Source: a virus (Duplodnaviria; Heunggongvirae; Uroviricota; Caudoviricetes). Taken from it: DNA of 64,000 nt. Location of the stretch: IMG/VR virus record IMGVR_UViG_3300009008_000002. One strand, 5' to 3'. This document shows positions 25,494-53,970 of the stretch, in pieces. A program made the translations under genes and the position numbers. The notes beneath the pieces are model-generated. The model saw only the letters and a program-made list of their open reading frames with translations, made no database searches and was not told the origin of the DNA. Every line of letters starts with the position of its first letter. The stretch's first letter is position 1.

Positions 25494-25685
25494 ATGTTAG
25501 TATTGTCAAGAAAGAAAGATGAAAGCATTCTATTGCAGATTGATGGACTTCCCGATATTAAAATCACAGTCGTTCGGGTAGACAACCTGAATAAAGTCCG
25601 GCTCGGAATCGAGGCTGAAAAAGAAGTAACGGTTCTCCGATCAGAACTGTTGGAAAAACAACCCCTTAAGGTCGCTGCACTCTGA
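25494..25685 (+). CDS. csrA: carbon storage regulator CsrA (RNA-binding translational regulator)
   Basis: MLVLSRKKDESILL…IKITVV…VRLGIEAEKEV.VLRSEL matches the CsrA/RsmA fold sequence nearly position by position; AAGGA RBS 8 nt upstream. Confidence 0.85.
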   Translation: MLVLSRKKDESILLQIDGLPDIKITVVRVDNLNKVRLGIEAEKEVTVLRSELLEKQPLKVAAL

Positions 25686-25757: not shown

Positions 25758-26498
25758 CTAGCTAGGCGAATCCTCATTTAGATATTCCATGCGTTTGGTG
25801 TGTTCGTTGTAGGTCGCAATTAACTCGATTGATCTAATTGCACCAGCATCCCAAATGCATCCGGCTGCACAATCCCAGCCATAATACCACATTCCGCCAT
25901 TTAACCGCAGACTCCACAGGTAAGGGCTAATCTCAATCCCGCTCCAAATTTCCGATACATCGTGCCAATTAATGTAATTGGGCCGCATTTCACCGAATCC
26001 TTGGTCAAGAATTCCAAGTGATCTGGCCGCTTCGCTATCAGGAGCAACCCCCATTTTTTGGGCGTAATAATCTGCCGACTTCATGCCGAATTCATCCGAA
26101 AATTCAACAAATTCAGCATCATTCGTTATTTTACACACCTTTCCGTTGTAGAGTTGGACTTCATGGATTAAATGCGGACACCCGAAATCTTCGGACACAC
26201 ACCAATCAATCCACGATCCGCCGCACGAATACCACAACCCCAAAGGTTTTCCACAACCATCATGGGTCCAATCTTGTTCCCTGTCTGTAGGAACAATTAT
26301 GGTTTCCACGCTGGTAATTATTTTCCTATCTTCGCTCAAACCTTCCGAAAAATCACTGAGCGAAGCCTTGTAAGTGTCATCCCAAATAGGCGCACGTTCC
26401 TTGCGGTTCGCCTCAAATTTTTTCTCCCAGCGCTCTGCAAGTTCTTGTGGATTACACATTCCCGCTAACGCTTCTTCGTGGATTGCCTGATCGTCCAT
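25758..26498 (-). CDS. hypothetical protein (246 aa), Trp/Cys-rich
   Basis: ORF. Confidence 0.4.
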   Translation of the reverse strand: MDDQAIHEEALAGMCNPQELAERWEKKFEANRKERAPIWDDTYKASLSDFSEGLSEDRKIITSVETIIVPTDREQDWTHDGCGKPLGLWYSCGGSWIDWCVSEDFGCPHLIHEVQLYNGKVCKITNDAEFVEFSDEFGMKSADYYAQKMGVAPDSEAARSLGILDQGFGEMRPNYINWHDVSEIWSGIEISPYLWSLRLNGGMWYYGWDCAAGCIWDAGAIRSIELIATYNEHTKRMEYLNEDSPS

Positions 26499-26661
26499 TT
26501 TATTTAACCCGAAAAAGTTGGCTATCCCATCTGACTTCGCCCAAACCCCGATAACTCGTCAGCCATCTTCAAAGGGGGGCCGTTCTACCAGATTGCACAG
26601 GTAAGTTTATTCACAAAGGATCTGTGGAAGATACACCGCTCTATAGCACGATGCTTGCCAA

Positions 26662-28104
26662 CTAATCTTCACTTCTTGACCCATCACCGCACATTCGCAC
26701 GATTTTAGGATCGAATTGCGCCACGATTTCCACAAGGTCAGCCTGTTCCATCATAACATTGTGGATATTTTTATAAACCCCCGGCACTTCGTCTGCGCCA
26801 GCAGAAAGCACCCTAACCCCTTTACGGGCAAGGTCTTCTCGCACTGCCTTCCAATTGTATTTATCTTTCGCTTTTTTTCGGGACATAACCCGACCTGCGC
26901 CATGTGACGCAGAATACAGACTATCGGGATTACCCATACCACGAACGATAAACGCTGGCGTAGCCATAGAACCTGGGATTACACCCAACACACCTGGGCC
27001 AGCAGGAGTAGCACCTTTTCGGTGGACAATTACCTCTCCAACATCCAGAGAGTGCATTTCTTTCCACGCAAAGTTATGGTGATTCTCCACGTCCCAGAGG
27101 ACTTCGGCACCAGTTAATTTCGCAAGCTGCTTATGGATCACGTCATGGTTCGCAGCCGCAAATCTACCCATCAACTCCATCGCCAGCCAGTATTCCTGGC
27201 CTTCCTCAGAATCTAAGGACAACCAAGCCAGACGCCCCAAATCTTCTTTATATCGAGGGTCCAACTTCATTTGCGCAATGGCGCTGTATTGCTGGCAGAC
27301 AGTGCTTCCTGGCCCTCTTGAGCCAGAATGCGACATAACCGCTACATACTGCCCGGCAGGTAAAGTGAGGCTCTTTGGCACATGCGGATCACTAGCGGCA
27401 TGTGAATGATCATCAGGAATAGTAACAAGTCCAAATTCCACAAAATGATTCCCACTACCACTTGTCCCAAGCTGGAGGACCGCTTTATCTTTTTGGTCTT
27501 TCGTGACGCTGGTGACAGACCAATCATCATCAAGAACAGGATGATTTCGAGGCTGATCATATACAGCGCTACCTTTATTACCGATTCCAAAGCGAGTTCC
27601 TTTCTCCAAGGCTTCCTTGAACAAATTAAACTTGGAGTCCAGGTGGGTCACTGGCAAATCCAAGACCGACAATTTCATTCGACAGGCAATGTCAACACCT
27701 ACCGCGTAAGGACACACGGCATTTTTAAGAGCCAACACCCCGCCAATTGGCAGTCCGTAACCCAAGTGCGCATCCGGCATTAGCGCAGCACCAACCGCAT
27801 CTGGCAGACTACATGCCTGCTTCATTTGACCGTGGCAAGACTCTTCAATTTGGTCGCCTCCCCACGTTTTATAATCAATCGGCTCTGGGCGCACGAAATC
27901 ATTGTTCTCGATCACTGCCTTAGCGAAATCGCCCCAGTGTTCATGGTCAGCGTATTCACCCGGAAGTGCCAAAACGTTTTTTATCGTATTTTTCAGAACA
28001 TTGGTGCGCACATGTCCTTTGATACATGCAGACTGAATGCCCTGGATGCACGCTTTCAAGCAAATTTCCGGCACGCCTAGTTTTCGTAAAGCCTTGTTAT
28101 TCAC
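26662..28104 (-). CDS. rtcB: RNA-splicing ligase RtcB (3'-phosphate/5'-hydroxyl RNA ligase)
   Basis: MPDAHLGYGLPIGGV, GSGNHFVEF, HSGSRG, HNFA motifs of the RtcB family; 480 aa. Confidence 0.9.
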   Translation of the reverse strand: MNNKALRKLGVPEICLKACIQGIQSACIKGHVRTNVLKNTIKNVLALPGEYADHEHWGDFAKAVIENNDFVRPEPIDYKTWGGDQIEESCHGQMKQACSLPDAVGAALMPDAHLGYGLPIGGVLALKNAVCPYAVGVDIACRMKLSVLDLPVTHLDSKFNLFKEALEKGTRFGIGNKGSAVYDQPRNHPVLDDDWSVTSVTKDQKDKAVLQLGTSGSGNHFVEFGLVTIPDDHSHAASDPHVPKSLTLPAGQYVAVMSHSGSRGPGSTVCQQYSAIAQMKLDPRYKEDLGRLAWLSLDSEEGQEYWLAMELMGRFAAANHDVIHKQLAKLTGAEVLWDVENHHNFAWKEMHSLDVGEVIVHRKGATPAGPGVLGVIPGSMATPAFIVRGMGNPDSLYSASHGAGRVMSRKKAKDKYNWKAVREDLARKGVRVLSAGADEVPGVYKNIHNVMMEQADLVEIVAQFDPKIVRMCGDGSRSED

Positions 28105-28108
28105 GATC

Positions 28109-28624
28109 TTACCTTTGAATTAAACTGGATGGTTTCGTTTTCACTTTCTCAACGAAACTCTCCAATTTTTGTCGGTCATACTCCAAAGCATCTACTGCTT
28201 GTTGAGGGGTCATAGCCTTCCAAGCTCGGTAGCTGCCATAATTGGTTTTGAGAGAGGAGTTACACTCCATCCAACCACTATCTGTAAACTGGGTCTGCCA
28301 AAACCGGGCAATAAGAGTATCCATATCCGTTGCAGCCCGCTTATAGTGGCCTCCACTATACCCCAAACAGACTGCTGCGTATCGACCAATGACATTGGGA
28401 ACGGATGGCCAGTAGACAAACTCATCGTCTTCTTTAGCAAAGGCTAAGAAGAGATAAGAGTGTTTCTGGTATTTCCTATGGCCAAAGACCAAATATGGAA
28501 AAGGCAAAAAATAAATATTGCTATGGTGCGAAATACACCTCTTCTGAGGGGGATATTTCCTTACCTCATACCCTCTCCCCTTCGCCAACACTTTGTACTG
28601 GGTCGCCATACCCGAAATCCTCAA
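28109..28624 (-). CDS. hypothetical protein (171 aa) sandwiched between rtcB and the kinase-SLOG gene
   Basis: ORF; operon position only. Confidence 0.4.
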   Translation of the reverse strand: MRISGMATQYKVLAKGRGYEVRKYPPQKRCISHHSNIYFLPFPYLVFGHRKYQKHSYLFLAFAKEDDEFVYWPSVPNVIGRYAAVCLGYSGGHYKRAATDMDTLIARFWQTQFTDSGWMECNSSLKTNYGSYRAWKAMTPQQAVDALEYDRQKLESFVEKVKTKPSSLIQR

Positions 28625-29576
28625 ACACTTTTAATAAAAATTTGACAGTGAATTCCTGAATTCCCGGTGATTTACTCTCTCTGTTGCCCGCAATATTGAC
28701 GATTCGTATATCGTTTTCCTGAAACCAAGCCTTTACAGTTTCAACTTGTTCAGAGAAATCGTTTTTCGGATCAACGTCAACATAGGGCTTGTTGTAATCT
28801 CGAATTCCCTTCAGAGTGCATTTCTCGCCCACAGAACCCCAATTTGAGGCAATTCTGATTGTGCCATCAGAATCCTTGGCATTCAACCGAGTTCTAGGGA
28901 CGTAACTATCTGTCTCCGTTTCAGTTAGGCCAAGCACCTTCAACTCAGGACTCGCCCCTTTTTCTGTTCTAAAGCCTTTGGGAATCCACCCGCCAGTGGG
29001 TATTTTCAGCATATATGCGGCTTGCAATCCGCCCTGATCAGCACCAGTTTGGCCACCAGAAATTACCCTTTCGACATTATAACTGGTTTTCCCCAACTGT
29101 GAACTTACAATTTCACTAAACCCTTCTTCAGCCTGAACTTCCTGATAAACAGACAAGTGGTGGCGGGCATTCACCAACCAACGCTCATACGAAGTGCCCC
29201 TAGAATCGTGTTCCGTTCGTCTCTTAGCATGAACCTCTGGGGATTCTATGGGAAACAGTATGGCGATTGGTTCCGCTTCAAGGCTCTTGGCAAGAGCAAT
29301 CCAACGGACACGACTTTGACGAGCAAGGTTCAATCCCCTATCAATTATTACATCTTTGCCCATAGCAATGGCAATATGTAAAATATGATCTTCGATAGAC
29401 TTGTAAAGGGGCTTTAATTCTTTGGAATAAAGAGTGTAGACGCCACCATGAACAGCAGTCACGATGGAATCGTCATTTATGACGATAGCACCTTCTTGTG
29501 CTCTTTTTGCTGAGTAGGTTGACTTGCCAGAGGCAATCATGCCTACCAGAACTTCAATTCTAGGTTTGCTTTTCAT
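28566..29576 (-). CDS. P-loop polynucleotide-kinase-like domain fused to C-terminal SLOG (MoCo-carrier/YpsA-like) domain
   Basis: N-terminal Walker A VGMIASGKST, then IVINDDS and DRGLNL…R (PNK/zeta-like kinase layout). C-terminal ISGGQTGADQGGLQAA…GGWIPKG…DSDGTIRI matches the SLOG/MoCo-carrier-like signature. Confidence 0.7.
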   Translation of the reverse strand: MKSKPRIEVLVGMIASGKSTYSAKRAQEGAIVINDDSIVTAVHGGVYTLYSKELKPLYKSIEDHILHIAIAMGKDVIIDRGLNLARQSRVRWIALAKSLEAEPIAILFPIESPEVHAKRRTEHDSRGTSYERWLVNARHHLSVYQEVQAEEGFSEIVSSQLGKTSYNVERVISGGQTGADQGGLQAAYMLKIPTGGWIPKGFRTEKGASPELKVLGLTETETDSYVPRTRLNAKDSDGTIRIASNWGSVGEKCTLKGIRDYNKPYVDVDPKNDFSEQVETVKAWFQENDIRIVNIAGNRESKSPGIQEFTVKFLLKVFEDFGYGDPVQSVGEGERV

Positions 29577-29603
29577 GCAAACATTATATTTATTTGGTCT
29601 ACT

Positions 29604-29879
29604 TTATGCAACCTTATTATTGATAAATCTAATCAATTCATCATGCGTATAACCTGCCTCAATCACGTAATCCTCGATAAACTCAATCTGATCTTGAGTA
29701 AGAAAATCGAAATGTTGGAGTTCATCAAGAGTGACGTTTCTACGTCGGACGTGCCATGCGGCAGATAGAAGTCGGTTGTTTATTGAGCTATCAAACAACC
29801 GATTGCAATTTGAACAGCTAGAGATCCCGTTAGCTAAGGGAGCATCTAGTATGTGACCACAAAATGGGCAATATAACAT
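29604..29879 (-). CDS. small zinc-ribbon protein
   Basis: CPFCGH…CSNC four-Cys ribbon at the N-terminus. Confidence 0.4.
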   Translation of the reverse strand: MLYCPFCGHILDAPLANGISSCSNCNRLFDSSINNRLLSAAWHVRRRNVTLDELQHFDFLTQDQIEFIEDYVIEAGYTHDELIRFINNKVA

Positions 29880-29893
29880 ACTACCCTATTTAT

Positions 29894-30229
29894 TCATTTC
29901 GTGGAAATATTAAAACCCAATGCTGTTGCTATTTCATTTAAATAAAACTGCTTGCCTTCTGGTGTGGGATCAAGACTACCATTTTTCAATAATGCCTCTA
30001 CGTCACCTAAGCCATTCTTAAACGCAGTAACGGCTCCGTCTACCATTTCCTGCAATGCTTCTAATTGCTGGGACCGTTGTAGAAATATTTCTAGCCGGGG
30101 TCCAGTCTCAAATAGACTTTCTAATTCCAGACCTTCATCCAACTCTTGCTCTGTGATCTGCCCAATTCCTGCTTTGAACCACAACTCATTCAAGCGAGCT
30201 ACTTTTTCAAGACGTTCTTCATCCATCAT
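29894..30229 (-). CDS. hypothetical protein (111 aa)
   Basis: ORF followed by an A/T-rich hairpin region. Confidence 0.35.
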   Translation of the reverse strand: MMDEERLEKVARLNELWFKAGIGQITEQELDEGLELESLFETGPRLEIFLQRSQQLEALQEMVDGAVTAFKNGLGDVEALLKNGSLDPTPEGKQFYLNEIATALGFNISTK

Positions 30230-30286
30230 AATAAAAAAACCTCGTTACCCTAATAGAGCAACGAGGTTTTTATTTTGAACGGACTT

Positions 30287-31573
30287 CTACACGAAATCAG
30301 ATTCCTCATCATCGTCATCGTAGTCCGCATCGTCGTCGTCATAATCTTCGTCTTCAGCGACGACACTTTCGACTTCATCCTCTTCCTGATAGTCAGCTAT
30401 GACTTCTTCGGCTGAGGCAGCTTCATCATCATCGACTTCCTGCTCGGCGGTTTCTTCTGTGTCAGCATCATCCTCTACATAATAATCGGAGAACACCGAT
30501 TTAATGAGGGCGATTGGCTCTTGGTTTCCGCCTGTGAGAATCGAATCTACGATAGCACGGGCCAGATTCAGATGATCCACTTCACCAATGAATTCATCGT
30601 CTTCGTCGTGACCATCATTCCCTAACCACTTATCAAGCGATTTTAGAATCTTCTTGATTTTGGCTTTGCTGAGGGAAGATGATACGTGTGTGGCACCGAC
30701 AACAGTAGAAGCAGTGTTGAGGTTTTTATTTCGAGCCTGCGGAGTAGTGTCTTCCGCCTCTTCAAGTGCCGCTTGGGCAGTGTTGAGGTTTTCGTGCGCT
30801 TGTTCCGCTTCCTCTGAAGCCTGCTCTTTGTCGTCGTCGTCACCCATGACGTTAGCAGCAGCCACATTGGCGTCTGCCGTTTCGACTTTATCCTCGGCCT
30901 TTGTCACGGCTTTCTCTCGCTTTCCTATTTCGGCCTGCCAATCTTTGGCAAGGTCGTCAAGGGTTGCTTTGAGCAAAGCGTGACGCAATTCAACTTCCTC
31001 GATAGCGGCCAATTTTAAAGCCACCCGCAGACTGAGACGACCATTCTGGTATTCCTCGAACGTGGTAAGATCGAGATTGCCAAGAATGTCCATCTGGCGA
31101 AGCCAAGGTTTGGTCCGACCAGTGATTTCTAAAATCTTCTCGTCAGAAAAACCGATTTTTCGCCAATGACGAACACATGCCGCCGTGGCATTGTCGCCAA
31201 TCGGCTTGCCCGTATCATTATCGCGCCACGCGATGATCCAGGCTTCATCGTCGGTAATACCTTCGTAGATACGAACGGGCACCGACTCTTTTTCCAACTT
31301 CATGGCACAGCGAAGTCTTCGTTCACCGGCCAAGAGTATTAAATCACCATTATCCAGCTTCCTGAGAAGAAGTGGGTTGGTGATACCGCGAGTGTCAATA
31401 TCCTCACAAAGCTGTTCCATTGACTGGTTTTCAAAGCCTTGTGCAGACAACTCGCCTTCGCCGCCCTGGTGGAAATGGCGGGGATTGCAGAAGCCGTCAT
31501 CCGTCAACGAATCTGCAAAAATGATTTCCCCAGGAGAAATTTGTTGAACTTCCGGCATTGTGGCGGTAGTCAT
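30287..31573 (-). CDS. ParB N-terminal-domain (ParB/Srx nuclease-like) protein with extremely acidic C-terminal tail
   Basis: LLAGERRLRCAMKL (GERRxRA ParB box II); C-terminal ~60 aa almost entirely D/E (DEDYDDDDADYDDDDEESDFV). Confidence 0.65.
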   Translation of the reverse strand: MTTATMPEVQQISPGEIIFADSLTDDGFCNPRHFHQGGEGELSAQGFENQSMEQLCEDIDTRGITNPLLLRKLDNGDLILLAGERRLRCAMKLEKESVPVRIYEGITDDEAWIIAWRDNDTGKPIGDNATAACVRHWRKIGFSDEKILEITGRTKPWLRQMDILGNLDLTTFEEYQNGRLSLRVALKLAAIEEVELRHALLKATLDDLAKDWQAEIGKREKAVTKAEDKVETADANVAAANVMGDDDDKEQASEEAEQAHENLNTAQAALEEAEDTTPQARNKNLNTASTVVGATHVSSSLSKAKIKKILKSLDKWLGNDGHDEDDEFIGEVDHLNLARAIVDSILTGGNQEPIALIKSVFSDYYVEDDADTEETAEQEVDDDEAASAEEVIADYQEEDEVESVVAEDEDYDDDDADYDDDDEESDFV

Positions 31574-31603
31574 GCTCTAGAACCTCCAATCCTGTTTGTT
31601 GAG

Positions 31604-32236
31604 TTAGAAAGCATAATTCTTATTTTCTTTACGACAACGAAGTTGCCAAGAGACTTCATACTCCTTTCTCCCAAAATTATCAAGCGAAGAATTCTTCTTT
31701 TTTAGGACTAAACCTTCGATTTCGTCCAATTCGATGAAATCTTGAAATCGGGGAACAAAATCTCGATCAAAAGTTTCAGCCAACCACACGTTCTCTGAAA
31801 CTACTAAAGCGATTCCGTTCGCTGATTCCCTTTCTTCAGGACTTCGACATATACTTTGAAGCAACTCATATCGCTTCAAGAGGTTAGGGCTACCGAATAA
31901 ATACCTACCAGCCTGCAACACGTCGAACAAAACCACACGATTTTTGTATTGTGGATCACTTGTTTTTCTATGCAAAAGTTCAGCGTCAAACCAGTATTCC
32001 TTACCCGGTTCAATTGCCAAATCAAGGATTTGTTGAGCTACCTGATCTGACAAACTCCACTGCTTATGGGGGGAATTGTGTCTTGTCCACGCCGCAACTT
32101 GGCCATTGGCGCTAACATTCAGGACAGTCCTAGTCCCATTGAACTTTCTCTGGGCTACCCATATTCCCTGTCTTTCGTATTTGGGTAGCTCTACGGGACG
32201 AATTCTATGCTTGGGGCGGGGCGGGTAAATGGCCAA
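31604..32236 (-). CDS. minimal ATP-dependent polynucleotide ligase/capping-enzyme-superfamily nucleotidyltransferase domain (no OB domain)
   Basis: Motif I AQRKFNGTR (KxNGxR), motif III FDAELL, motif IV VLFDVL, motif V EGLVLKKKNS in correct order and spacing. Confidence 0.55.
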   Translation of the reverse strand: MAIYPPRPKHRIRPVELPKYERQGIWVAQRKFNGTRTVLNVSANGQVAAWTRHNSPHKQWSLSDQVAQQILDLAIEPGKEYWFDAELLHRKTSDPQYKNRVVLFDVLQAGRYLFGSPNLLKRYELLQSICRSPEERESANGIALVVSENVWLAETFDRDFVPRFQDFIELDEIEGLVLKKKNSSLDNFGRKEYEVSWQLRCRKENKNYAF

Positions 32237-32361
32237 GGTAATGTCCTTTCAACAGTAAGTTTAAGTGATTCTGACTGTCTCTAGGAACTACAATTTTTTC
32301 CATACCAACCACCTTACCCACGATTATAGCATAGAATTTGGAGAAGTGAAGCTGGATATGC

Positions 32362-32679
32362 CTATCCGACTTTCAATTCATTCCGCACCGTCAAAGCAAG
32401 ATACGGAATGGACGACCCATTGATCGCACGTCGCACCGCCTCTTGGGCCATTTGCTTCTGATAATACGTGCCCACATCACCTTGGATAATCAAATCCCCA
32501 TCGTCATACGAAACAATTATTTTACAGCATTCTACCCCGGCACGAACGTGTGGCTCACTTAACAGTTCGTCCTGCACCGCCTCCATGACTTTCCGCATGT
32601 CCATTCTCTCCATTTGTATATCCCGGTTCCACACATCTAAAAAGCTGTCCACAATCTTCACACCGCACTCGTAGCGCAT
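32362..32679 (-). CDS. hypothetical protein (105 aa)
   Basis: ORF. Confidence 0.3.
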   Translation of the reverse strand: MRYECGVKIVDSFLDVWNRDIQMERMDMRKVMEAVQDELLSEPHVRAGVECCKIIVSYDDGDLIIQGDVGTYYQKQMAQEAVRRAINGSSIPYLALTVRNELKVG

Positions 32680-33313
32680 GAGATTTATCTGGACGGCGAC
32701 CCGACCTTACGCTGTTGTATGGCGGATCACAACCACATTCATATTTCAGAAAATAATTTTTAGGAGATTTTGCTCTAAACTTAACATGTTTAAATACTTC
32801 AAAATCCACTTCCTGCATCATTCTTTCATACCAATCCTCTCTCAGATCCATAATCTGTTCATCAGGGAAAACTACGCAACCATTTTTACACGGACAATCC
32901 AAACCTCCAAAATCATCACACTGCGAGTGATCAGAAAAATCGCCTACATCACTACTGGAAAGGTAGCCAAACTTATCGTCGCGGGCCACGTAAAGACCAC
33001 ACAATAGAGCCTGTTTGGCATAGTTTTTGTTGTGATATTGATAGTTCGATGAATCTTTTATCGAGTGTATATGGTTGTTGATGTGACAGGCTTGGTGAAT
33101 GACCTCATCTAAAATTATTCGAGGCGGCACATGAGGCATTAAAGTCCCCAACACCAACTCAAAAGGACCGGAAAAAAATCGCATAGCAAAACGATTTCTC
33201 CCCTTGACCTTTATCGCTGGGACCGGCAAGGTATCCTCAAAAAATGTCTTTGAACAATCTTTAAGTATCCTTAAAATCTCTCTCTTCGCTAGTCGATTCG
33301 GCATAAGTCTCAC
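32555..33313 (-). CDS. hypothetical Cys-rich protein with C-terminal zinc ribbon (SprT-like?)
   Basis: C-terminal CGC…CEDCG ribbon; HQACH is not a canonical HExxH, so the protease assignment is weak. Confidence 0.3.
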   Translation of the reverse strand: MRLMPNRLAKREILRILKDCSKTFFEDTLPVPAIKVKGRNRFAMRFFSGPFELVLGTLMPHVPPRIILDEVIHQACHINNHIHSIKDSSNYQYHNKNYAKQALLCGLYVARDDKFGYLSSSDVGDFSDHSQCDDFGGLDCPCKNGCVVFPDEQIMDLREDWYERMMQEVDFEVFKHVKFRAKSPKNYFLKYECGCDPPYNSVRSGRRPDKSHALRVRCEDCGQLFRCVEPGYTNGENGHAESHGGGAGRTVK

Positions 33314-33947
33314 CTTCTTCTTCTAAGCGAACTTCTCGAAATAACTCGCCAATTCCTTCTGCATCCCCCAAATCGACAAATCTAGTTGCCGCCTCTTTTA
33401 ATTTGTAGGAACACTTTTGATCGAAGAAAGCGACCTCAACCGCCAAACCTTTTTCATCTTGTAAACGGGTAACTAAGCGGGCATATTCTTCGTCGCCCGC
33501 CACCAAAACCAAAGTATCAAATGCGGCGTCACGACTTAACGCACACATATCGTAAACAATCTCCAAATTAATATTAGCGGAAAAACCCTGGTGCTGGGGC
33601 AATCTTACCGTGGTGTAGCCAGCACGCTCCAGCACATAATAAAATGAGCGGCGCTTTTTGGCCGCTCTGAGCAACGCTGGATCTGCGTCATCCCTTACCA
33701 CAGGCTCCGAGTAATAAAATTTGGCAGCAGCCATCGTCCTGTTGTCTGCAAGGTATTCCTTCAATTTAATATAGTCGATCCGGCGACTACTCAGAACTTC
33801 CTGCATTTCCTGCACAGCGCCAAACAAGCTGCTGTTGTCCACAAATAACGCTACTTTCTCTTTCTGCCTTATTTCCTCCTGTAAATCATCTAACCTCTCG
33901 ACTAAAAATTGGAGACCACCATCTTCAGGCCATAAATTGGAATCCAT
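33261..33947 (-). CDS. NYN-domain (LabA-like, PIN-fold) ribonuclease; start trimmed to internal Met
   Basis: VALFVDNSSL…, DYIKL…, LVLVAGDEEYARLV…GLAVEV pattern of NYN domains. The listed N-terminal 43 aa look like antisense read-through. Confidence 0.6.
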   Translation of the reverse strand: MDSNLWPEDGGLQFLVERLDDLQEEIRQKEKVALFVDNSSLFGAVQEMQEVLSSRRIDYIKLKEYLADNRTMAAAKFYYSEPVVRDDADPALLRAAKKRRSFYYVLERAGYTTVRLPQHQGFSANINLEIVYDMCALSRDAAFDTLVLVAGDEEYARLVTRLQDEKGLAVEVAFFDQKCSYKLKEAATRFVDLGDAEGIGELFREVRLEEEGETYAESTSEERDFKDT

Positions 33948-34045
33948 TTCGGTTCCCCAAAGTGAAGTGAAAAAGAGACATTTCTTCGCATACTGAGGCA
34001 TGATCGTTGAAAGTATGCACCAAAACCAAACTGGAGTCAAGAGCA

Positions 34046-34732
34046 ATGTCTGGAAAAAAAGAACACGTAGAAACAAAAGTATTCCAGCACGGGAAAAAGA
34101 TTCTCCTGAATATCCACCACGCCGATGACAAAATGCGCGGACATCGAGTTTCCGTCTACATAGCCCGTGATCAGAATGAATTGTTTGGTGATTGGTTGTG
34201 CGACGTTCAGACCTACGATGCCGAAGCCGACGATGGAGAATGGTTCCTCACGTTCCGGGGTAGTAGAGAACTTCCCGAAGAGATCAAATACAAGCGATGG
34301 CCCAGCTACAGAGCTGCCATAGACTTCTACCTACCCTTCAGTATAGCCGTTCGCAACGAAACCGAACGACACCCTCTCCCTGAAGATGTTACCCAAATTC
34401 TGGAAAGTTGGTCAAGATCGCTGTCTGACGAACGGAAAGAACTGGATAGTCGGTATCATGCCCTGATGCGCCGACGATGGGAATTAAAACACCTAGCTGA
34501 CAAATACAATTTGACCAGCCTTGGGTATCAGAATGAAGACACTGACAAGGCTCAAGCACTTCGTCGTCTGCTAGATTTTGAACACTGGATGGAGAAAGAA
34601 GAAAAGACTATTCCGTTCTTTTCTGAAGCTGTTCTCTACGAATTGGTGGGCAAGGAAGACGCCCGCACCATTCTAGCTCTATTGAGGGGTGTAGCAGAAC
34701 ACATTGATCCAGAAATCGCTAAGGAGATTTAA
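34046..34732 (+). CDS. hypothetical protein (~228 aa), divergent from the NYN gene
   Basis: Plus-strand ORF not contradicted by minus-strand genes; start set at the second Met. Confidence 0.4.
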   Translation: MSGKKEHVETKVFQHGKKILLNIHHADDKMRGHRVSVYIARDQNELFGDWLCDVQTYDAEADDGEWFLTFRGSRELPEEIKYKRWPSYRAAIDFYLPFSIAVRNETERHPLPEDVTQILESWSRSLSDERKELDSRYHALMRRRWELKHLADKYNLTSLGYQNEDTDKAQALRRLLDFEHWMEKEEKTIPFFSEAVLYELVGKEDARTILALLRGVAEHIDPEIAKEI

Positions 34733-34782
34733 TTAATGTTCCAAGCGGCAAAATTGACCAAACTCTCAGTCTGTCATTGTTT

Positions 34783-35061
34783 TTAGTCTTGTTGAGGGAC
34801 AATAGTGGTTTTCATGCGTTCACGCCTCTGTTGTCTCTGATCCTTCCACCTATAAACCGCATCCAGTCGTTCTAACTGCTTATGAACCTTTTCCATTGCA
34901 AACTCAATATCACCGAAAATCATGTAGTGCAAGGAATTAGGACGACGAAGAACATTCTCTAGCGCCTCTGCCGCTCGGACAAAATCGGTCCACGCCTTCT
35001 TATCTTGGGGGTCTACCCCCTCAGCGATCATGTCTTCTTTGTATTCATCGTAAGATTTCAT
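34783..35061 (-). CDS. hypothetical protein (92 aa)
   Basis: ORF. Confidence 0.35.
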   Translation of the reverse strand: MKSYDEYKEDMIAEGVDPQDKKAWTDFVRAAEALENVLRRPNSLHYMIFGDIEFAMEKVHKQLERLDAVYRWKDQRQQRRERMKTTIVPQQD

Positions 35062-35702: not shown

Positions 35703-36530
35703 TTAGGTAGGTTGGGCGTATTTTTGAATATCTTTTAGGTAGAGAATTTTATTTCCCTTCGTTATCTGCTCTGTAGTGTCTGGCCTCTTCCGGCGCATAT
35801 ACTTCATAGTGCAATCACCTTCGTGATATATAAAGCTCTTTACAGAGATGGCTTGACTGAATCCGTAAGCTCGCATTCGCTTGGCAAATTCCGCATTTTC
35901 GTAACCAGCAAAGGGATAATGCTTTATGTGTCCTATCCTATTAAATAACTCACGATGACACATTGCACAATACAAAGGTAAATACTCATCCTCTTCATCA
36001 AGGACAATATCCGCAAAATCTGTTTCTTCATCTGGAATCAGGGATGCAGAAGACTTCATCTTAAAATTATCAACTGTAGGGTTATTAGTCAAAGGTGCTA
36101 CCATCTTAATGCCTTGATCCTTCAGTTTCATCATAGATTGACCCAAATTAAGGAGCCAGCGAGGCTCTTTAATCAGACAATCTGAGTGCATTATCACCAC
36201 CCATTTGAAAATCGGCTGATTCTTACGCCTCACCTTATCTAGCGCCTCAATTCCCTTCTGAATACACGCTCCAAAACCAATTTGCTCATCATTTCTGACC
36301 TCTAGCAAATTCGGTATTTGCCCAAAACCGTATTGAATGAAATCCTGATTAGGTGAAGCATCATCAACCAAACAAATTCTAAAATGAGGCGTCATGGTGT
36401 GATGAATTAAACTTGTTACTAACGATGCTACCTTTTCATATTGACCATAAAAAGGAATGACCACATCCACATATTGATCTGAAAAAAGAGGGTGATCATC
36501 TACAAAATTAAAAACTTTCGATTTTCCCAT
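35703..36530 (-). CDS. family-2-like glycosyltransferase
   Basis: VVIPFYGQYEKV…ICLVDDASPN (GT-A fold DxD region). Confidence 0.5.
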   Translation of the reverse strand: MGKSKVFNFVDDHPLFSDQYVDVVIPFYGQYEKVASLVTSLIHHTMTPHFRICLVDDASPNQDFIQYGFGQIPNLLEVRNDEQIGFGACIQKGIEALDKVRRKNQPIFKWVVIMHSDCLIKEPRWLLNLGQSMMKLKDQGIKMVAPLTNNPTVDNFKMKSSASLIPDEETDFADIVLDEEDEYLPLYCAMCHRELFNRIGHIKHYPFAGYENAEFAKRMRAYGFSQAISVKSFIYHEGDCTMKYMRRKRPDTTEQITKGNKILYLKDIQKYAQPT

Positions 36531-37046
36531 TTAAATACCTAAAATTAAATCAGAGGGTGAATCACAATGATATACTGTAGCCTGTTCAGCAAAAGTTGCC
36601 ATAGTGTCATAAGCATCTCCAATGCCATAAAACACGAATTTAGTAGGAACATCTAATCTCTCCTTGAATCTCATGCCCTTCACAACGCCATATTTATTGT
36701 CGGACTCGTACCTATCCGTCACTACCATGATTACCCTGTCATAATCATACGAATCTTCTCCAGCCAAAACAAAGTAAGTTTGCTTAATAGCCTGCCCCAA
36801 GTGAAACTCTGAGAACTTTAACCGCATCATTTGTGCGATAGTTTGGCTTTTGTATCGAGGAACATCTAATTCGTCTTCCCGAAAAACATACACCCTGTCA
36901 TCATGGTGAAGACCCGCTATAAAATGAGAAAACTTTGTTTTGAGTTCATTTAAAAAAGGCGGTCTATTTATATCAAAAATCACACCTATTAAGCTATTTT
37001 GCATTTTTTCTCCTGTGTTTCTGGTGATTGTAAATCTTGCACACAT
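36531..37046 (-). CDS. hypothetical protein (171 aa)
   Basis: ORF; 5' end overlapped by the homing endonuclease gene. Confidence 0.35.
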   Translation of the reverse strand: MCARFTITRNTGEKMQNSLIGVIFDINRPPFLNELKTKFSHFIAGLHHDDRVYVFREDELDVPRYKSQTIAQMMRLKFSEFHLGQAIKQTYFVLAGEDSYDYDRVIMVVTDRYESDNKYGVVKGMRFKERLDVPTKFVFYGIGDAYDTMATFAEQATVYHCDSPSDLILGI

Positions 37047-37950
37047 ACTGAAAAGATGTCCCTAACTCAATTGCTATTTCTTTATAGGTCCAACCTTTTT
37101 CTCTTAAATCAAAAACACTATTAAGTTTCTCTTGGCTGAATTGCCTTGCAAAAGCAGATTTAGAAATATCAATTTTGTAATCCATACACTCACACGGTAT
37201 TTTTTGATCTCTAATTAAATCCATAAAATCAAAGTATGATTTGGCAGGAACATTAATCTCAACTTTATCTTTTTTAACCAACCTTAGTTTCGTTTTAATC
37301 CCCACACCCAATTCTATTAAATCTACAAGTCTTTCACACTCCTCATCAGAAAAACCATCAGTAGAGAAAAATGCTTGCCTGTGCGGGCTAAAATTCCTAC
37401 CATCATCAAAAAACCACACAGCAAGTACAAAGGGAGTAATGTTTAACTTAGAAGGCAAACACTTAACCCTTCTGCCACCTTTCAAAATGTAATCACCATC
37501 ATTGTTTCGTAAATACCACTCTTTTTCCATTTCATAAAAAACAGAATGATAAAGCGTATAGCATTGCCACGACTCTTTCCTTTGTCCTATTTTACCATTA
37601 GGAAAAACAACCTCAGTTGGTGGTCTTGGAATTAATTTGCGAGAAAATGGCTTCAATAAATCATTTTTCCAACTCAAATAATCCTTTTGCACAACCGAAT
37701 GCCATTCTGCAAAATTTGATTTTACTTTTCTTGGTTTAGACAAACTGCCATCGCCCAAAAGCGATCCAATTAAAAGGTTATGCTGCTTTTGAGTAAACAC
37801 ATTTGGAAGATCCACCCTGCGTTTAAAAAGCCCATGCCGTTTTGCAATGCGGTCAACAGTAGACCTTGAAACACCAAAATAATCAGCCGTTTCATTGTTT
37901 GTGTGTTCAAGCCAAATATTTTTAAATTCTTCAACATCAACATCTATCAT
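36994..37950 (-). CDS. LAGLIDADG homing endonuclease (two-motif, single-chain) with flanking HTH-like segments
   Basis: LLIGSLLGDGSL and VLAVWFFDDGR LAGLIDADG motifs ~100 aa apart; free-standing (not obviously intronic/inteinic). Confidence 0.8.
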   Translation of the reverse strand: MIDVDVEEFKNIWLEHTNNETADYFGVSRSTVDRIAKRHGLFKRRVDLPNVFTQKQHNLLIGSLLGDGSLSKPRKVKSNFAEWHSVVQKDYLSWKNDLLKPFSRKLIPRPPTEVVFPNGKIGQRKESWQCYTLYHSVFYEMEKEWYLRNNDGDYILKGGRRVKCLPSKLNITPFVLAVWFFDDGRNFSPHRQAFFSTDGFSDEECERLVDLIELGVGIKTKLRLVKKDKVEINVPAKSYFDFMDLIRDQKIPCECMDYKIDISKSAFARQFSQEKLNSVFDLREKGWTYKEIAIELGTSFQYVCKIYNHQKHRRKNAK

Positions 37951-38744
37951 AGCGAACTTCCTCTTAGTTTTCTATGATATATACGAATAGGATTTAAAAA
38001 ATCTTTAATCGGGTGTAAAATACTTGCTTTTTTGTAATTTACATCTATATCAGGTCTAAATCTTATTGGAAACTGTTCGTGATAGCCGTGCCACTTCTGA
38101 TCCGCTTCTGTAAACTTAGCAAGCTCATTAACAACGCCGCCGTAATGAGCCGCTAAAGTGGGAAACAGGTGCTCACCGAAATCGTAACCACCCTGCTCTT
38201 CGTAGCCAGGGAAAAACCCCTTTGAAAAATCGTTAGTATAAAAAAGGAACTTATCAAAGAAATCAATCTCAAATAATTTCTTGACAAAATCTCGATGATG
38301 GAACACACAAGCACCAAGTAGATAGTGACTAAATAAAAAATTCGTCTCGAATATACTTTCCAACAATGGGAACTGTATATTCCCAGTTCTGTAGTCATTC
38401 CCCAAACACCATATCTTTTCCTTTTCTGCTGCTTGTAAATATGGCCCAAATCCTGACGATGCTACCAAGCAATCGTATTCCATATAACAATACCAATCAG
38501 CATCAGGGAATATGGTCCCAGCGTGTTTTAAAGCTAGAACAATGTTTCTATATGGGGCACGGTTGCAAGCATGATATAGCCCCTCTAGCTTATGAACTGG
38601 CAATTTCACCTTTTCTAGTTTATGCCAACCGGCACCATCACAAATAACCAACACATCATGGGTCATCCACCGTCTTATGGATTCTAATGTATCGAAGACA
38701 ATTGGCGAGTCATCATGCACATTTAAAATGGCTGCTATTTTCAT
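37947..38744 (-). CDS. hypothetical protein (265 aa), possibly glycosyltransferase-like
   Basis: ORF in glycan island. Confidence 0.35.
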   Translation of the reverse strand: MKIAAILNVHDDSPIVFDTLESIRRWMTHDVLVICDGAGWHKLEKVKLPVHKLEGLYHACNRAPYRNIVLALKHAGTIFPDADWYCYMEYDCLVASSGFGPYLQAAEKEKIWCLGNDYRTGNIQFPLLESIFETNFLFSHYLLGACVFHHRDFVKKLFEIDFFDKFLFYTNDFSKGFFPGYEEQGGYDFGEHLFPTLAAHYGGVVNELAKFTEADQKWHGYHEQFPIRFRPDIDVNYKKASILHPIKDFLNPIRIYHRKLRGSSL

Positions 38745-38807
38745 ACAAAAAAAATTCCTGCTAACTAACTTATTTTAAGTGAGTAACAATATTCAGGAGT
38801 CGAATAA

Positions 38808-39722
38808 ATGAATCCAGAAGAAAAAACAAAGTTGAAAGAATTGTATAGGGTGTTAGTTGATGAAAACGACCCCCAAAAGCTACCCTATCTGCATGTATTG
38901 GGCGACCTTGTAGGTCAGAACACTGATTTCATTGCACTGAAAAGCCTGTTAGCAGGCGATAACTGGCCGCGAGCGGTTGATCCCAACTTGATTTGCGACC
39001 AAGAATCAGAAACAGATAAAATTAGTCGTGCAGAAGGTATTTTAGAACTATTAGTCGAGAAAGACTTAAAAGACAAGAAATTTCTCGATTTCGGATGTGG
39101 GGAAGGTCATGTGCCATATAAGTCACTGGTGCAAGAGCCTACTGTCACGGTTGGTTACGATATTAAAACCAACGACCATTGGACTGAGTTCGGGAGCAAT
39201 GAAAAACTTGTATTCACCGACAAATTAGAAGAAGCAAAAGAACACGCTCCTTATGACGTGATTCTTGTATACGACGTTATCGATCACGTCACAGCAGAGG
39301 AAAGCGTTGCCATTTTAAAACAAGTCCATGAATTGCTTGATGAAAACGGCACGGTTTATTTAAGAGCACACCCCTTCTGCTCACGACACGCCACACACTT
39401 ATATCACAACATCAACAAATCGTTTATCCATTTGGTGTTTTCCGCAGATGAATTGCAACAATTGGGATATGAAGCCCCACCGAATGCTAAAGTTGTTTAT
39501 CCAATCACTCAATACGGCCAGATGTTTGAGCAAGCTGGCTTTACAGTAAGCCACCACAACATTTTAAGAGAGAAGGTCGAACCCTTCTTTTTGAAGAACC
39601 CAGTTGTAAAAGAAAGGGTTAGATTGAATTACGCAAACAGCCCTGATAAACACATTAAAAAAGGTGGTTTCCCTGAATTCCAACTTGAACAACAATTCAT
39701 TGATTATGTCCTAAAGAGATAA
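38808..39722 (+). CDS. class I SAM-dependent methyltransferase
   Basis: KFLDFGCGEGH motif I, VILVYDVIDHV (post-II), NGTVYL motif III. Confidence 0.6.
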   Translation: MNPEEKTKLKELYRVLVDENDPQKLPYLHVLGDLVGQNTDFIALKSLLAGDNWPRAVDPNLICDQESETDKISRAEGILELLVEKDLKDKKFLDFGCGEGHVPYKSLVQEPTVTVGYDIKTNDHWTEFGSNEKLVFTDKLEEAKEHAPYDVILVYDVIDHVTAEESVAILKQVHELLDENGTVYLRAHPFCSRHATHLYHNINKSFIHLVFSADELQQLGYEAPPNAKVVYPITQYGQMFEQAGFTVSHHNILREKVEPFFLKNPVVKERVRLNYANSPDKHIKKGGFPEFQLEQQFIDYVLKR

Positions 39723-39723
39723 T

Positions 39724-40785
39724 ATGTCAAAATCAACAATATACGATCTCCAGATCGTGATGCCAGTAACCTTTGAGGGCAAATATGGTCAAAGGTTGCT
39801 GGATTTTAAAAAGACCGGACTCCTGAATATTAAGGATAAGAAAGTGCTGGTTACTCTGCTCATTGGGCCAGAACGCGCTCCATTTTGGAAAGGCGACTGG
39901 CCCGATGGAGTAGATGTTGAAGCCATTGAGAGTCCACACAAGCAGGAAACCCCAAAAACTTATAGCTATTTCGGCACACTCAAAGCTGAAGATATAAGAG
40001 CAAGATGGATAGCCAAAATTGATGATGACACAATTAATGATGTGTCAAATTGGGTTGATAAACTAGATGAAGAATATGATCATACTAGAGAATATTATAT
40101 CGTCACTGAATTCAGACCAGAACAACATGCCCACGAAGACAACATCTTAAGAGAAATGGGATTTAATCGTTGGTTTACAACCAAGAAATGCGTCATCTGG
40201 CATGAATTAGAAGGATGCGTGGTATCTGAAGCGGCTCTTAGCAGAATAGTAAGCAATGAAACTGCGACCAAATTCATGCAAAAAAGAGCAACCATTCCAG
40301 AGGGCTACAATGACTATGCTCTAGCGTGCGCTGCTCGCATATGTAAGATTTACCCCAGCGATGCATATTTTATGTCAAAACTTCCACAGATTGGGGATCT
40401 CATGTTGTTCGGTGGACACCTTTGCCATATACATGAAATCTCACATGATAGAAACTTCCACTGCTTTGATTTAATACAAAGAATGATGAATGAAGATATA
40501 GGCAGTGAAACAGACATCCATAATGAGGTTGTAGGAAAAGAGTTTGTGTACACAAATGGACATGCGATGCTAATTGTTAAATTAGAACCAAATGGTGTAA
40601 TAAGCGGCCAACGTTCAGATGCTAGAATTTGGCATGTCAAACCAAACGGCTTTTTGGAATTTCTGAGAAGTGATGGCTCGCTGGTTGAAGTGTTTGATAA
40701 TTATGAAAACACAAATTTTATGGAAGGGTATCACGACAAAAACTCACGCCTACCAGGAAAACCTCAACTCAGAAAACTAGCATGA
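39724..40785 (+). CDS. hypothetical protein (353 aa)
   Basis: ORF directly coupled to the upstream MTase. Confidence 0.4.
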   Translation: MSKSTIYDLQIVMPVTFEGKYGQRLLDFKKTGLLNIKDKKVLVTLLIGPERAPFWKGDWPDGVDVEAIESPHKQETPKTYSYFGTLKAEDIRARWIAKIDDDTINDVSNWVDKLDEEYDHTREYYIVTEFRPEQHAHEDNILREMGFNRWFTTKKCVIWHELEGCVVSEAALSRIVSNETATKFMQKRATIPEGYNDYALACAARICKIYPSDAYFMSKLPQIGDLMLFGGHLCHIHEISHDRNFHCFDLIQRMMNEDIGSETDIHNEVVGKEFVYTNGHAMLIVKLEPNGVISGQRSDARIWHVKPNGFLEFLRSDGSLVEVFDNYENTNFMEGYHDKNSRLPGKPQLRKLA

Positions 40786-40801
40786 TTTTATTATATACAG
40801 T

Positions 40802-41464
40802 ATGAAACTGGTTGCATTCTATAATAAATCATATGAGCCATTAAAAAAACGATTTCTCAAGTCCCTCCTTGATGACTTTGAGCTAGATATAGATTTCATT
40901 CCAATAAAAGCAAACGAAAACACGCCAGGAGGAGGTCGTTCAATATGGAAAGCCAGAACAAAATGGACAGCAGACAAAATCCAAAAATACAAAAATGAAA
41001 TAGTATTATTCTGTGATTTGGATATTCAATTTTTCCAGCCAATCAAAGACAATATCCTAGCCTTATTGAATGACAATGATATACTATTTCAAAGAGCCAA
41101 ACCCAATAGAAAACCAATTAATATTGGAGTTATGGTAGTCAAATGCAACAAAAAAACTGAAACTTTGTGGAGGTTAGCGAGCAATATTTCACACTATTAT
41201 AAAATTCAAGACGAAGATATAATAAACACCCTATTAAGCTCTCAAGTAACCAATCCACTTCAAATAAAATATGATTTCCTACCATTAACCTATGCTATCA
41301 CTAATTACATAAATAATTCTACTATTGTTGACTTGATGTTACACCATGAAACATCTACTAGATTTATAGAAAGCAAACTAGAAGTTATGTCCAAAATAAA
41401 AAAAAGATGGGAGAAGGGAATGAGAGAAAAGGAGAGGAAAGTCTCCCGACCGTGCTATTTATAA
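40802..41464 (+). CDS. hypothetical protein, possible nucleotide-sugar transferase-like
   Basis: ORF; FCDLDIQFF resembles GT-A DxD context (weak). Confidence 0.35.
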   Translation: MKLVAFYNKSYEPLKKRFLKSLLDDFELDIDFIPIKANENTPGGGRSIWKARTKWTADKIQKYKNEIVLFCDLDIQFFQPIKDNILALLNDNDILFQRAKPNRKPINIGVMVVKCNKKTETLWRLASNISHYYKIQDEDIINTLLSSQVTNPLQIKYDFLPLTYAITNYINNSTIVDLMLHHETSTRFIESKLEVMSKIKKRWEKGMREKERKVSRPCYL

Positions 41465-42255
41465 ACATTAGCATTTGATACACGATGCACTTTTGGGCGA
41501 GCACTCTTTGGGTTTTCATGTGTAGAATAATCAGAATAATCGAAATCCCCTAAATAATCTGCCTCAATATTGAAATATTCTAAAAAAACCAATTGATTAG
41601 TTATAATTGCTTCCAGATCAAAAGATGAACCCACTCTGCCACTTTGCTTGCTAATCCTCTCATCGTGACAATGGTGCTTATAATATTGAGGACAACAGCC
41701 TATCATCGTAGCTTTTTGAATACCACAAAACCACATAAAATGAATCAATGTAGTAATGCTGCCTGTATGTGCAAAAAGTGATTTTTGCTTGATGATTTCA
41801 TTTTTATCTAAACACCAATTTGGAAACTTTTTTATATCCATAGATTTATTTTTGTACCAATCATCTGGAGTAGAACCAAAAGTGGGAACATAATATAATC
41901 GTTTGACTTCTGGTTTTATGTCTTTTATGGATTTTAACCAAACTGTTTCTGACCATGCTCTCTCAAAATCTAAAAATTTATCAGGATTTCTAAAATAAAC
42001 AAGTGGACAAAGATACAAGGATTTAGAAACTAAACCACAAGCTGGATAGGGAGGGTGATGGGTTACAAGAAAGGATTCATTAACATATTTCTCAAATCTT
42101 ACTGCATCATTTACTAAAAATACAGGACAAGAAAAATCGGATAAATCCCTATAATCAAAAAGTGTAGGGCCAGATGCTACAACTACTGCATTTTTTCCTT
42201 TGAAACAGTCTTTATACTGACTCAACACAGCTACATTAGAGTAATGTTGCAACAT
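41455..42255 (-). CDS. hypothetical protein (266 aa)
   Basis: ORF. Confidence 0.35.
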   Translation of the reverse strand: MLQHYSNVAVLSQYKDCFKGKNAVVVASGPTLFDYRDLSDFSCPVFLVNDAVRFEKYVNESFLVTHHPPYPACGLVSKSLYLCPLVYFRNPDKFLDFERAWSETVWLKSIKDIKPEVKRLYYVPTFGSTPDDWYKNKSMDIKKFPNWCLDKNEIIKQKSLFAHTGSITTLIHFMWFCGIQKATMIGCCPQYYKHHCHDERISKQSGRVGSSFDLEAIITNQLVFLEYFNIEADYLGDFDYSDYSTHENPKSARPKVHRVSNANVYK

Positions 42256-42949: not shown

Positions 42950-42962
42950 ACTTTATTAAAGT

Positions 42963-44695: not shown

Positions 44696-44703
44696 TCCGA
44701 GAG

Positions 44704-45315: not shown

Positions 45316-45322
45316 GGGGGAA

Positions 45323-46702: not shown

Positions 46703-46703
46703 T

Positions 46704-47549: not shown

Positions 47550-47609
47550 TTTAAATCTCTCAACAGACAGACCACCCCTACTATATAAAATACTAGGAAA
47601 ATCAAGAAA

Positions 47610-53936: not shown

Positions 53937-53970
53937 TCTTTCTCTCCTTTCCAACACTATATAAAATACT

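Follow-up and report, generated by a model that had tools for sequence, protein, structure and literature searches.

A 64,000-nucleotide (nt) stretch of DNA from the virus record IMGVR_UViG_3300009008_000002 (IMG/VR; Caudoviricetes), here called the window, carries on its minus strand a gene (31604-32236) for a 210-aa ligase-like protein. This protein represents a complete and conserved adenylation domain of ATP-dependent DNA-ligase descent, and its family is essentially phage-restricted and located on huge-phage contigs. In the window and in most related loci the next gene codes for a ParB-type protein. The ligase-like gene probably encodes an active covalent nucleotidyltransferase (NTase) of DNA-ligase descent that has no OB domain. 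A tentative reading, held with slightly more doubt than confidence, is that this enzyme acts on 5'-phosphate ends of DNA in concert with the ParB-type protein from the same operon and has a specialised role in repair or maintenance.

The adenylation domain and its family

The open reading frame (ORF) of the ligase-like protein does not contain any ATG, and its start is a TTG at 32236. This codon is considered the real start because the N-terminus (YPPRPK) is conserved. The public gene call (P0003) begins at an internal TTG, which results in a 149-aa product that has lost motif I and the catalytic lysine. In the full-length protein, motif I is K31-F-N-G-T-R (within QRKFNGTR), motif III is E86 (FDAELL) and motif IIIa is F104-D105. 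Motif IV corresponds to E174-G175-LVLK, and motif V to R200-C-R202-K203, located within W-x-x-R-C-R-K. An alignment of 41 family sequences revealed that K31, E86, D105, E174, G175, L178 and R202 are invariant, as are the family-specific N-terminal YPPRPK and the C-terminal Y208. Motif I follows the pattern Q-x-K-F/Y-N-G in this alignment. Among 244 full-length members, K-x-N-G was counted in 199, KxDG in 13, EG-hhh-K/R in 237 and [RK]xRK in 195, where the counts stem from approximate regular expressions and certain motif I matches may be mis-assigned. Only 7 residues follow motif V, and the AlphaFold2 (AF2) model consists of a single domain (predicted local distance difference test score, pLDDT, 94.8). 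Thus, the protein has neither an OB domain nor motif VI.

Fold and profile comparisons were in line with the motifs. Foldseek searches with the model matched human Lig1 (2e-8) and archaeal ligases (TMq 0.70). The comparison table of the analysis gives, in a column without a name, 16-19 for three-domain and LigD-type ATP-dependent DNA ligases, 15.6 for the Snurportin cap-binding domain, about 14 for the minimal Lig E and Chlorella virus ligases, about 12 for capping enzymes and 8-11 for RNA ligases. The Pfam model DNA_ligase_A_M (PF01068) scored the window protein at 23.7 bits versus a gathering score of 26.2 (E 4.4e-5) and was matched by 34 of the 41 aligned members at E<=0.01 (best 5.1e-11). 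The Pfam RNA_ligase model was matched by 25 of these members and the capping-enzyme model by 19. The top NCBIfam model was the LigD ligase domain of non-homologous end joining (3.7e-7), and the Pfam and NCBIfam alignments cover residues 25-186. No Pfam or NCBIfam model reached its threshold with the window protein itself, and the sole PHROG match was to a generic ligase family. The closest PDB sequence is the African swine fever virus (ASFV) ligase, which likewise has K-x-N-G in motif I, and the K31 region aligns to QPKLDGLR of a canonical phage ligase described below. A single-sequence PDB search with the window protein returned nothing beyond a chance-level LigIV fragment. When the family profile was compared by hhalign, no useful alignment was obtained with the Chlorella virus ligase, and motifs I-III alone aligned with the canonical phage ligase. 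The closest relatives in fold and sequence were not the RNA ligases Rnl1-Rnl5, and no family-specific appended domain was observed. A sequence-only reading of this region had described a 210-aa protein with ligase motifs I, III, IV and V and no OB domain, and had proposed scoring it against hidden Markov models. Profile and fold methods agree with that description, the motif matches are backed by both Pfam and NCBIfam models, and motif IIIa can be added to the list.

The family is large and uniform in length. A database search yielded 204 clusters at 90% identity, all of about 205-225 aa. An exhaustive profile search detected 793 representatives (50% identity) at E<=1e-3 and 507 at E<=1e-10. 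In the top 150, nearly every representative has 195-240 aa, and the short length is thus a family design and not a truncation. Full-length relatives were present in 5 of 50,697 phage records, all of them "uncultured phage" assemblies of 595-735 kb, and the contigs of metagenome relatives reach 633 kb. A search of 185,579 species genomes (one per species) gave two matches, both on contigs of metagenome-assembled genomes; one of these is a 546-kb contig that plainly is a misbinned huge phage. No curated family for these proteins was found in Pfam, NCBIfam or PHROGs, and some pipelines call members "ATP-dependent DNA ligase". A literature search of incomplete coverage found no description of ligases lacking an OB domain, of ParB-ligase pairs or of this family in phages of huge or jumbo size.

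The ligase-ParB gene pair and its possible role

The gene order around the ligase gene was compared in 114 loci, which were gathered from records, scans and exact-protein-sequence look-ups. Removal of near-duplicates and the requirement of at least 700 nt downstream of the ligase gene left 59 loci. In 45 of them a ParB-family gene directly follows the ligase gene. This was the case in 41 of the 44 loci whose ligase reaches 200 bits or more against the family profile, and in 4 of the 15 with more divergent members. The two genes are separated by a few nt to about 30 nt, with 30 nt in the window. The adjacency persists to about 40% ligase identity while the flanking genes turn over. Upstream of the ligase gene, a 125-nt spacer contains a sigma-70-like promoter candidate with an extended -10 element and 10 of 12 consensus matches (Table 1), and elements resembling TTTACA-N17-TAnnAT were seen by eye 5' of the ligase gene in the related loci L006, L009, L011 and L015. 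Downstream, a hairpin that resembles an intrinsic terminator begins 16 nt past the ParB stop codon (fold energy -31 kcal/mol) and separates the pair from the genes that lead to RtcB. In 8 of 9 related loci a GC-rich hairpin with a T run likewise follows ParB directly; the sequences of these hairpins differ. Because of the tight adjacency, the promoter-like site and the terminator at a conserved position, the ligase and ParB genes appear to form a bicistronic operon of their own.

It might be argued that there is no functional coupling and that the seven genes between 29604 and 33947 are an inherited syntenic stretch of unrelated accessory genes. The synteny was indeed observed among related huge phages only, the NYN and RtcB genes described below come and go, and the position 29894-30229 is variable. 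However, the ligase-ParB adjacency survives the turnover of its flanks down to the identity given above, and relatives have in common the tight spacing and the bracketing by promoter and terminator. We therefore regard a complete lack of coupling as very unlikely.

The ParB-like protein was analyzed in the same way. Pfam ParB_N matched it with 36.7 bits versus a gathering score of 26.3 (E 4.5e-9), and the NCBIfam matches were Noc and ParB models. GERRLRC occupies residues 83-89, and the NPRH and GERRxRC boxes are conserved. Box I (NPRH) and box II are present, and the equivalent of box III (RxNDT) is divergent. The homologue search was swamped by acidic low-complexity words and returned 8 proteins. 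The AF2 model from this 8-sequence alignment (pLDDT 75) shows a ParB N-domain, of the CTP-switch type, and a helix-turn-helix (HTH) at residues about 9-190. These are followed by an antiparallel coiled coil (194-275), a helical C-terminal domain and a disordered acidic tail (367-428). The tail occurs in close relatives only and is absent in more distant homologues. Foldseek aligned about 200 columns, which run over the N-terminal and HTH domains, with Noc (7nfu, 1.5e-8), ParB-CTPgammaS (7bnr), ParB (6sdk) and KorB (8qa9) at E values of 1e-8 to 1e-7 and TMt up to 0.66. A scan of a subset of the other window ORFs gave no match to a partition ATPase of the ParA type, and the PADLOC defence models did not match except for a weak ParB-domain one. 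The earlier assignment of a ParB N-domain with an acidic tail is therefore upheld. The accompanying guess, that a ligase without OB domain may work with a partner, gains support from the position of ParB next to the ligase in the locus comparison.

Other ligases in related phages bear on the role of the small enzyme. The complete 595-kb genome LR756511 keeps the small ligase (202374-203012), ParB, the zinc ribbon and the kinase. When its ORFs were searched with reference ligases, a canonical ATP-dependent DNA ligase of 384 aa was detected at 184914-186065 (-), ~17 kb from the small ligase. It contains motifs I-VI (QPKLDGLR ... LLKYK ... motif VI PRFPYFMGLRDE). A T4 Rnl1-like RNA ligase at 8844-9959 (+) is also present, which gives a total of three covalent-NTase ligases in one phage. 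No homologues of RtcB, NYN or the SprT-like protein were detected anywhere in LR756511. A canonical ligase was also found in a second genome with a small ligase, IMGVR_UViG_3300003310_000099 (locus L015). Since canonical ligases coexist with it in these two genomes, the small enzyme is unlikely to be replicative there and is probably a specialised enzyme. By fold the small protein belongs to the DNA-ligase lineage, and no further ATP- or NAD-dependent ligase was found within the 64-kb window, so that a minimised main replicative (Okazaki-fragment) ligase of the phage could be envisaged. This proposal is highly improbable in view of the canonical OB-containing ligases in the two relatives and of the accessory-island setting, in which no replication genes were seen among the neighbouring ORFs scanned. 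The idea of an only or replicative phage ligase was set aside for the former reason.

A possible course of action can be outlined for the ligase-ParB pair. The ligase-like enzyme would self-adenylylate on K31 and would act on DNA 5'-phosphate ends, either sealing nicks or at least adenylylating the 5' end. In this clade the ParB-like protein would bring the ligase to DNA and hold it there. Such a reliance on ParB may exist because the OB and DNA-binding domains that normally encircle the nick are missing. The help by ParB would be analogous to that of sliding clamps or trans-acting OB proteins, which assist other ligases; PCNA restores DNA-binding-deficient Lig1, according to the title of PMC5407892. 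The role would be a specialised one, such as phage DNA repair or maintenance, and not bulk replication. A bolder version, which we consider unlikely, is a two-component DNA ligase of a new architecture. Here a CTP-gated ParB-type clamp would load a bare adenylation domain onto DNA, keep it at breaks and encircle the DNA in place of the absent OB and DNA-binding domains. If true, the CTP switch of ParB would be connected in huge phages with the joining of DNA ends or with DNA repair.

Several points weigh against action on DNA with ParB as the partner. Motif VI is required for self-adenylylation by canonical DNA ligases such as the Chlorella virus ligase. The model of the ParB-like protein consists of N-domain, HTH and helices and is devoid of an OB fold; ParB therefore cannot literally replace motif VI. 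Motif I carries N where canonical ligases carry D. No parS-like recurrent palindrome was found in the 64-kb window. Moreover, divergent members (loci L002-L004, L016, L018, L019, L097, L099 and L105) have no detectable adjoining ParB, and thus the enzyme can exist without this partner. The conserved adjacency among related phages may also be partly inherited gene order. Finally, the nearby genes for a polynucleotide kinase (PNK)-like kinase, RtcB, NYN and CsrA, together with the RNA_ligase matches of the family, make an RNA substrate possible.

An RNA-repair ligase would seal or adenylylate 5'-phosphate RNA ends, for example of cleaved tRNA, together with the PNK-like kinase and in parallel to RtcB. 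This resembles the T4 Pnkp-Rnl1 pathway and is essentially the earlier idea of a toolkit. In many loci the kinase is syntenic with ligase, ParB and zinc ribbon, and RtcB, NYN and CsrA lie near the ligase in the window and in close relatives. Neither an OB domain nor motif VI is indispensable for self-adenylylation by RNA-ligase NTase domains, as T4 Rnl2 illustrates, and more than half of the aligned members match the RNA_ligase model. In addition, an Rnl-like gene is located directly upstream of a homologue in locus L034. On the other hand, the immediate operon partner is a DNA-binding ParB, and the conserved terminator stands between the ligase-ParB pair and the kinase. Scans with family libraries revealed no 3'-phosphatase or 2',3'-cyclic phosphodiesterase among the proteins of the block, and a cassette of the Pnkp type, with kinase, phosphatase/cyclic phosphodiesterase and ligase as one unit, was not found. 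LR756511 keeps the small ligase in the absence of detected RtcB and NYN and has its own Rnl1-like ligase. Taken together, we consider RNA repair doubtful. The gene in L034 (74-763, +) codes for a 230-aa protein with KYDGSN ... EGVVVKG and lies directly 5' of the ligase homologue (1108-1761), where no ParB is present. Judged by its motifs only, its product is a different small RNA-ligase-like NTase.

The domain might also serve no ligation at all. It could be a nucleotide- or cap-binding module similar to the m3G-cap-binding domain of snurportin, could only adenylylate or guanylylate 5' ends (capping or blocking), or could modify proteins. The lack of an OB domain argues against an efficient encirclement of nicks, and nearly half of the aligned members match the capping-enzyme model. 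Snurportin is a non-catalytic binding module. A pure binding module needs no catalytic lysine and no metal- or phosphate-contacting residues, yet hundreds of divergent family members preserve such residues in motifs I, III, IV and V. Non-ligase use appears quite unlikely. We keep to the tentative reading of an enzyme that acts on DNA ends together with ParB.

Neighbouring genes and setting of the block

The genes and signals of the block are listed in Table 1. In transcription order, the ORF listing of the minus strand begins with NYN, the Cys-rich protein, the BON-like protein, the ligase NTase and the ParB-like protein, and continues with the 111-aa ORF, the zinc-ribbon protein, the kinase-SLOG protein, the E2-like protein and RtcB.

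Table 1. Genes and candidate signals in and around the ligase-ParB block, in the order of minus-strand transcription
Feature	Coordinates	Strand	Basis
NYN-domain (PIN-like) RNase, 228 aa, ATG at 33947	33261-33947	-	Pfam NYN
Probable SprT-like metallopeptidase-fold protein with C-terminal zinc ribbon	32555-33313	-	Homologue motifs, weak profiles
BON-like small protein	32362-32679	-	Pfam BON 21.2 bits (gathering score 27), E 3.7e-4
Sigma-70-like promoter candidate, TTCACT-16 nt-TGnTATAAT	32323-32350	-	Consensus match only
Stand-alone ATP-dependent-DNA-ligase-type NTase (adenylation) domain, 210 aa	31604-32236	-	Motifs, profiles, fold
ParB/Noc/KorB-type protein, 428 aa	30287-31573	-	Pfam, NCBIfam, AF2/Foldseek
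Intrinsic-terminator-like hairpin, 17-bp stem and T run	30235-30271	-	Consensus scan
111-aa ORF	29894-30229	-	Position variable among relatives
Zinc-ribbon protein, 91 aa	29604-29879	-	N-terminal four-Cys ribbon
PNK-like P-loop kinase fused to circularly permuted YpsA SLOG	28566-29576	-	cpYpsA 130.8 bits, AAA_33 48.5 bits
E2/UBC-like protein, 171 aa	28109-28624	-	Pfam Prok-E2_D 32.4 bits vs gathering score 25
RtcB 3'-phosphate RNA ligase	26662-28104	-	Pfam RtcB 286.9 bits

Some statements of the sequence-only reading have to be revised at this point. It had placed the block downstream of kinase and RtcB. All genes of the block are encoded by the minus strand, which puts the block upstream (5') of kinase and RtcB. 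All of the five genes that it had listed exist as located and show conserved coding; the interval, though, contains seven ORFs, as the BON-like gene and the 111-aa ORF had been overlooked. Its calls of an NYN RNase and of a zinc-ribbon protein hold, the former with a Pfam score above gathering threshold and the latter by a conserved CPxCG...CxxC, though all Pfam zinc-ribbon matches are below threshold. The gene labelled as a Cys-rich zinc-ribbon protein does exist and does have a C-terminal ribbon. The label itself is misleading, and the protein is likely of SprT-like fold. The view of one contiguous break-make toolkit with RtcB, kinase and NYN is weakly supported. The terminator after ParB splits the block, and LR756511 has ligase, ParB, zinc ribbon and kinase, yet homologues of RtcB, NYN and the SprT-like protein were undetected there. 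NYN, SprT-like, BON, zinc-ribbon, kinase-SLOG, E2-like and RtcB genes are a syntenic accessory island that codes for nucleic-acid enzymes and not one demonstrable machine.

The NYN gene is the first gene of the minus-strand block (Pfam NYN, 67.3 bits versus a gathering score of 24.2, E 2.7e-18). The mechanical ORF reaches a TTG at 34076; the ATG at 33947 fits homologues of 227-230 aa in loci L005/L008. A short divergent intergenic region separates NYN from a conserved gene at 34007-34732 (+), which has a homologue in L005 (E 4e-38). ARAGORN called a tRNA-Trp of 90 nt at 34346-34435 (-), antisense within this conserved gene. The call found no Rfam support at the gathering score and is probably false; if real, it might have tied RtcB to an intron-containing tRNA. 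The tRNA-Met at 13497-13571 was confirmed.

Homologues of the SprT-like protein have an N-terminal region of SprT-like type with HEMxH, followed by NQYH and FLKYxCxC...NSIRSGRRP...CxxC. The window copy does not keep HExxH and reads HQACH (E to Q) instead. HQxxH is found in L005, and more distant homologues have HEMxH. Because HQxxH replaces HExxH, the window and L005 copies are possibly catalytically inactive. The window copy also contains a lineage-specific extra Cys-rich insert (DHSQCDDFGGLDCPCKNGC). Four of five homologues scored 13.7-18.5 bits with Pfam SprT-like (gathering score 25.6; profile positions 2-96 of 108), and the window copy gave no match. The best PDB profile match was the human Spartan SprT domain (6mdx, E 0.019), and hhalign to E. 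coli SprT aligned the zinc ribbon alone. A match to phrog_6361 was obtained as well (E 2.7e-7). A SprT-like metallopeptidase fold with a zinc ribbon is thus likely, as judged by these sequence comparisons.

The BON-like gene lies immediately 5' of the ligase gene and probably starts near 32600, which would give about 80 aa. Homologues occur in L005 (precomputed PF04972), L006, L011 and many metagenome loci. The 111-aa ORF had no match in Pfam, PHROGs, NCBIfam or PADLOC and no homologue in related loci; at the equivalent position (10015-10380) L005 carries a YbaB/EbfC DNA-binding protein (YbaB_DNA_bd, 72 bits). In nine homologues of the zinc-ribbon protein CPxCG...CxxC is present, the helical C-terminal part (LSAxW) is conserved, and in most relatives the gene is syntenic with ligase-ParB. 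Scans with family libraries found no OB-domain match for the BON-like, zinc-ribbon or 111-aa proteins.

The kinase-SLOG protein matches phrog_505 (polynucleotide kinase) and weakly a bacterial Pnkp. At the same position in relatives, kinase (L006, L007) and SLOG (L005) are separate genes. Directly upstream of RtcB, the E2-like protein has a P-N...C-L motif with a conserved Cys. One or two E2-like paralogues flank every RtcB gene of the related loci, among them L005/L008 and L058 (L005 13188-14314; L058 2564-3298 and 4811-5431). This coupling of an E2/UBC-like protein to RtcB was unexpected.

In relatives, the recurrent wider syntenic block is CsrA - SprT-like - BON - [ligase - ParB] - zinc ribbon - kinase. 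Proximity of NYN and RtcB to the ligase is limited to close relatives (L005/L008, L033, L037-L039, L058, L063 and L094). The divergent huge-phage clades LR745206 and LR756501/2 have no ParB at the ligase locus; there, the neighbours are Nudix, HAD-like and ADP-ribosylglycohydrolase-like genes, as labelled from sequence motifs only. In the window a CsrA-like gene (25494-25685, +) is located downstream of the block on the opposite strand. The second CsrA position, found in most relatives, is upstream of the block on the same strand, and up to two CsrA copies are present per locus.

The 64-kb window appears to stem from the very large genome of an uncultivated phage and belongs to a contig of at least 193 kb. 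Its other genes are typical of huge-phage accessory content and include a UvrD helicase, AAA/ClpX-like ATPases, two adjacent SPFH/Band-7 proteins (57536-60966, -), a TIR-domain protein (10704-11759, -; TIR_2, 80 bits) and a LAGLIDADG endonuclease (36994-37950), which overlaps the end of a neighbouring gene. A near-identity DNA search of 26000-35000 against the 50,697 phage records did not reveal any match. Positions 36000-54000 form a low-GC island (0.35-0.40 versus ~0.45 elsewhere). By eye, the 275-aa product of 35703-36530 is similar to a protein of L016/L017 that also flanks a ligase homologue.

Comparison with known systems

To our knowledge, every characterised DNA ligase, including the smallest viral and bacterial ones, keeps an OB domain. 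This domain serves self-adenylylation and nick clamping. Minimal ATP-dependent DNA ligases are represented by the Chlorella virus PBCV-1 ligase (298 aa) and bacterial Lig E (PDB 4d05). Unlike the phage protein, the ASFV DNA ligase (PDB 6imj/6imk) is 419 aa long and comprises a DNA-binding domain at its N-terminus and an OB domain at its C-terminus. The phage family also differs from the m3G-cap-binding domain of Snurportin-1 (PDB 1xk5), as its catalytic lysine and its acidic and basic motif residues are retained. The kinetoplastid ligases REL1/REL2 likewise have no OB domain of their own, and their partners KREPA2/KREPA1 are thought to help by supplying OB folds in trans (PMC12936278). A heterodimeric ligase of phage PR1 (PDB 9hu3, nick-bound according to the title of the entry) is another precedent for a ligase assisted in trans; it is NAD+-dependent and only distantly related. 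With the CTP-dependent clamps ParB, Noc and KorB, the phage ParB-like protein has in common the GERRxR N-domain and the HTH. In contrast to known ParB proteins, it has a long coiled coil and a lineage-specific acidic tail, and no ParB context with a ligase domain was described in the literature searched.

These comparisons suggest two options: the adenylation domain is capable of more by itself than has been supposed, or its missing functions come from a partner of a new type. The operon, being conserved, offers a concrete candidate for such a partner and hints at a function of the ParB CTP-switch fold that was not expected. Very small ligase or adenylyltransferase reagents might also be obtained from this family, and huge phages carry specialised nucleic-acid enzymes besides standard ligases. 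In summary, the ligase-ParB pair is not a categorically new system, but a new architectural variant of a well-known kind of enzyme, together with a new candidate partner.

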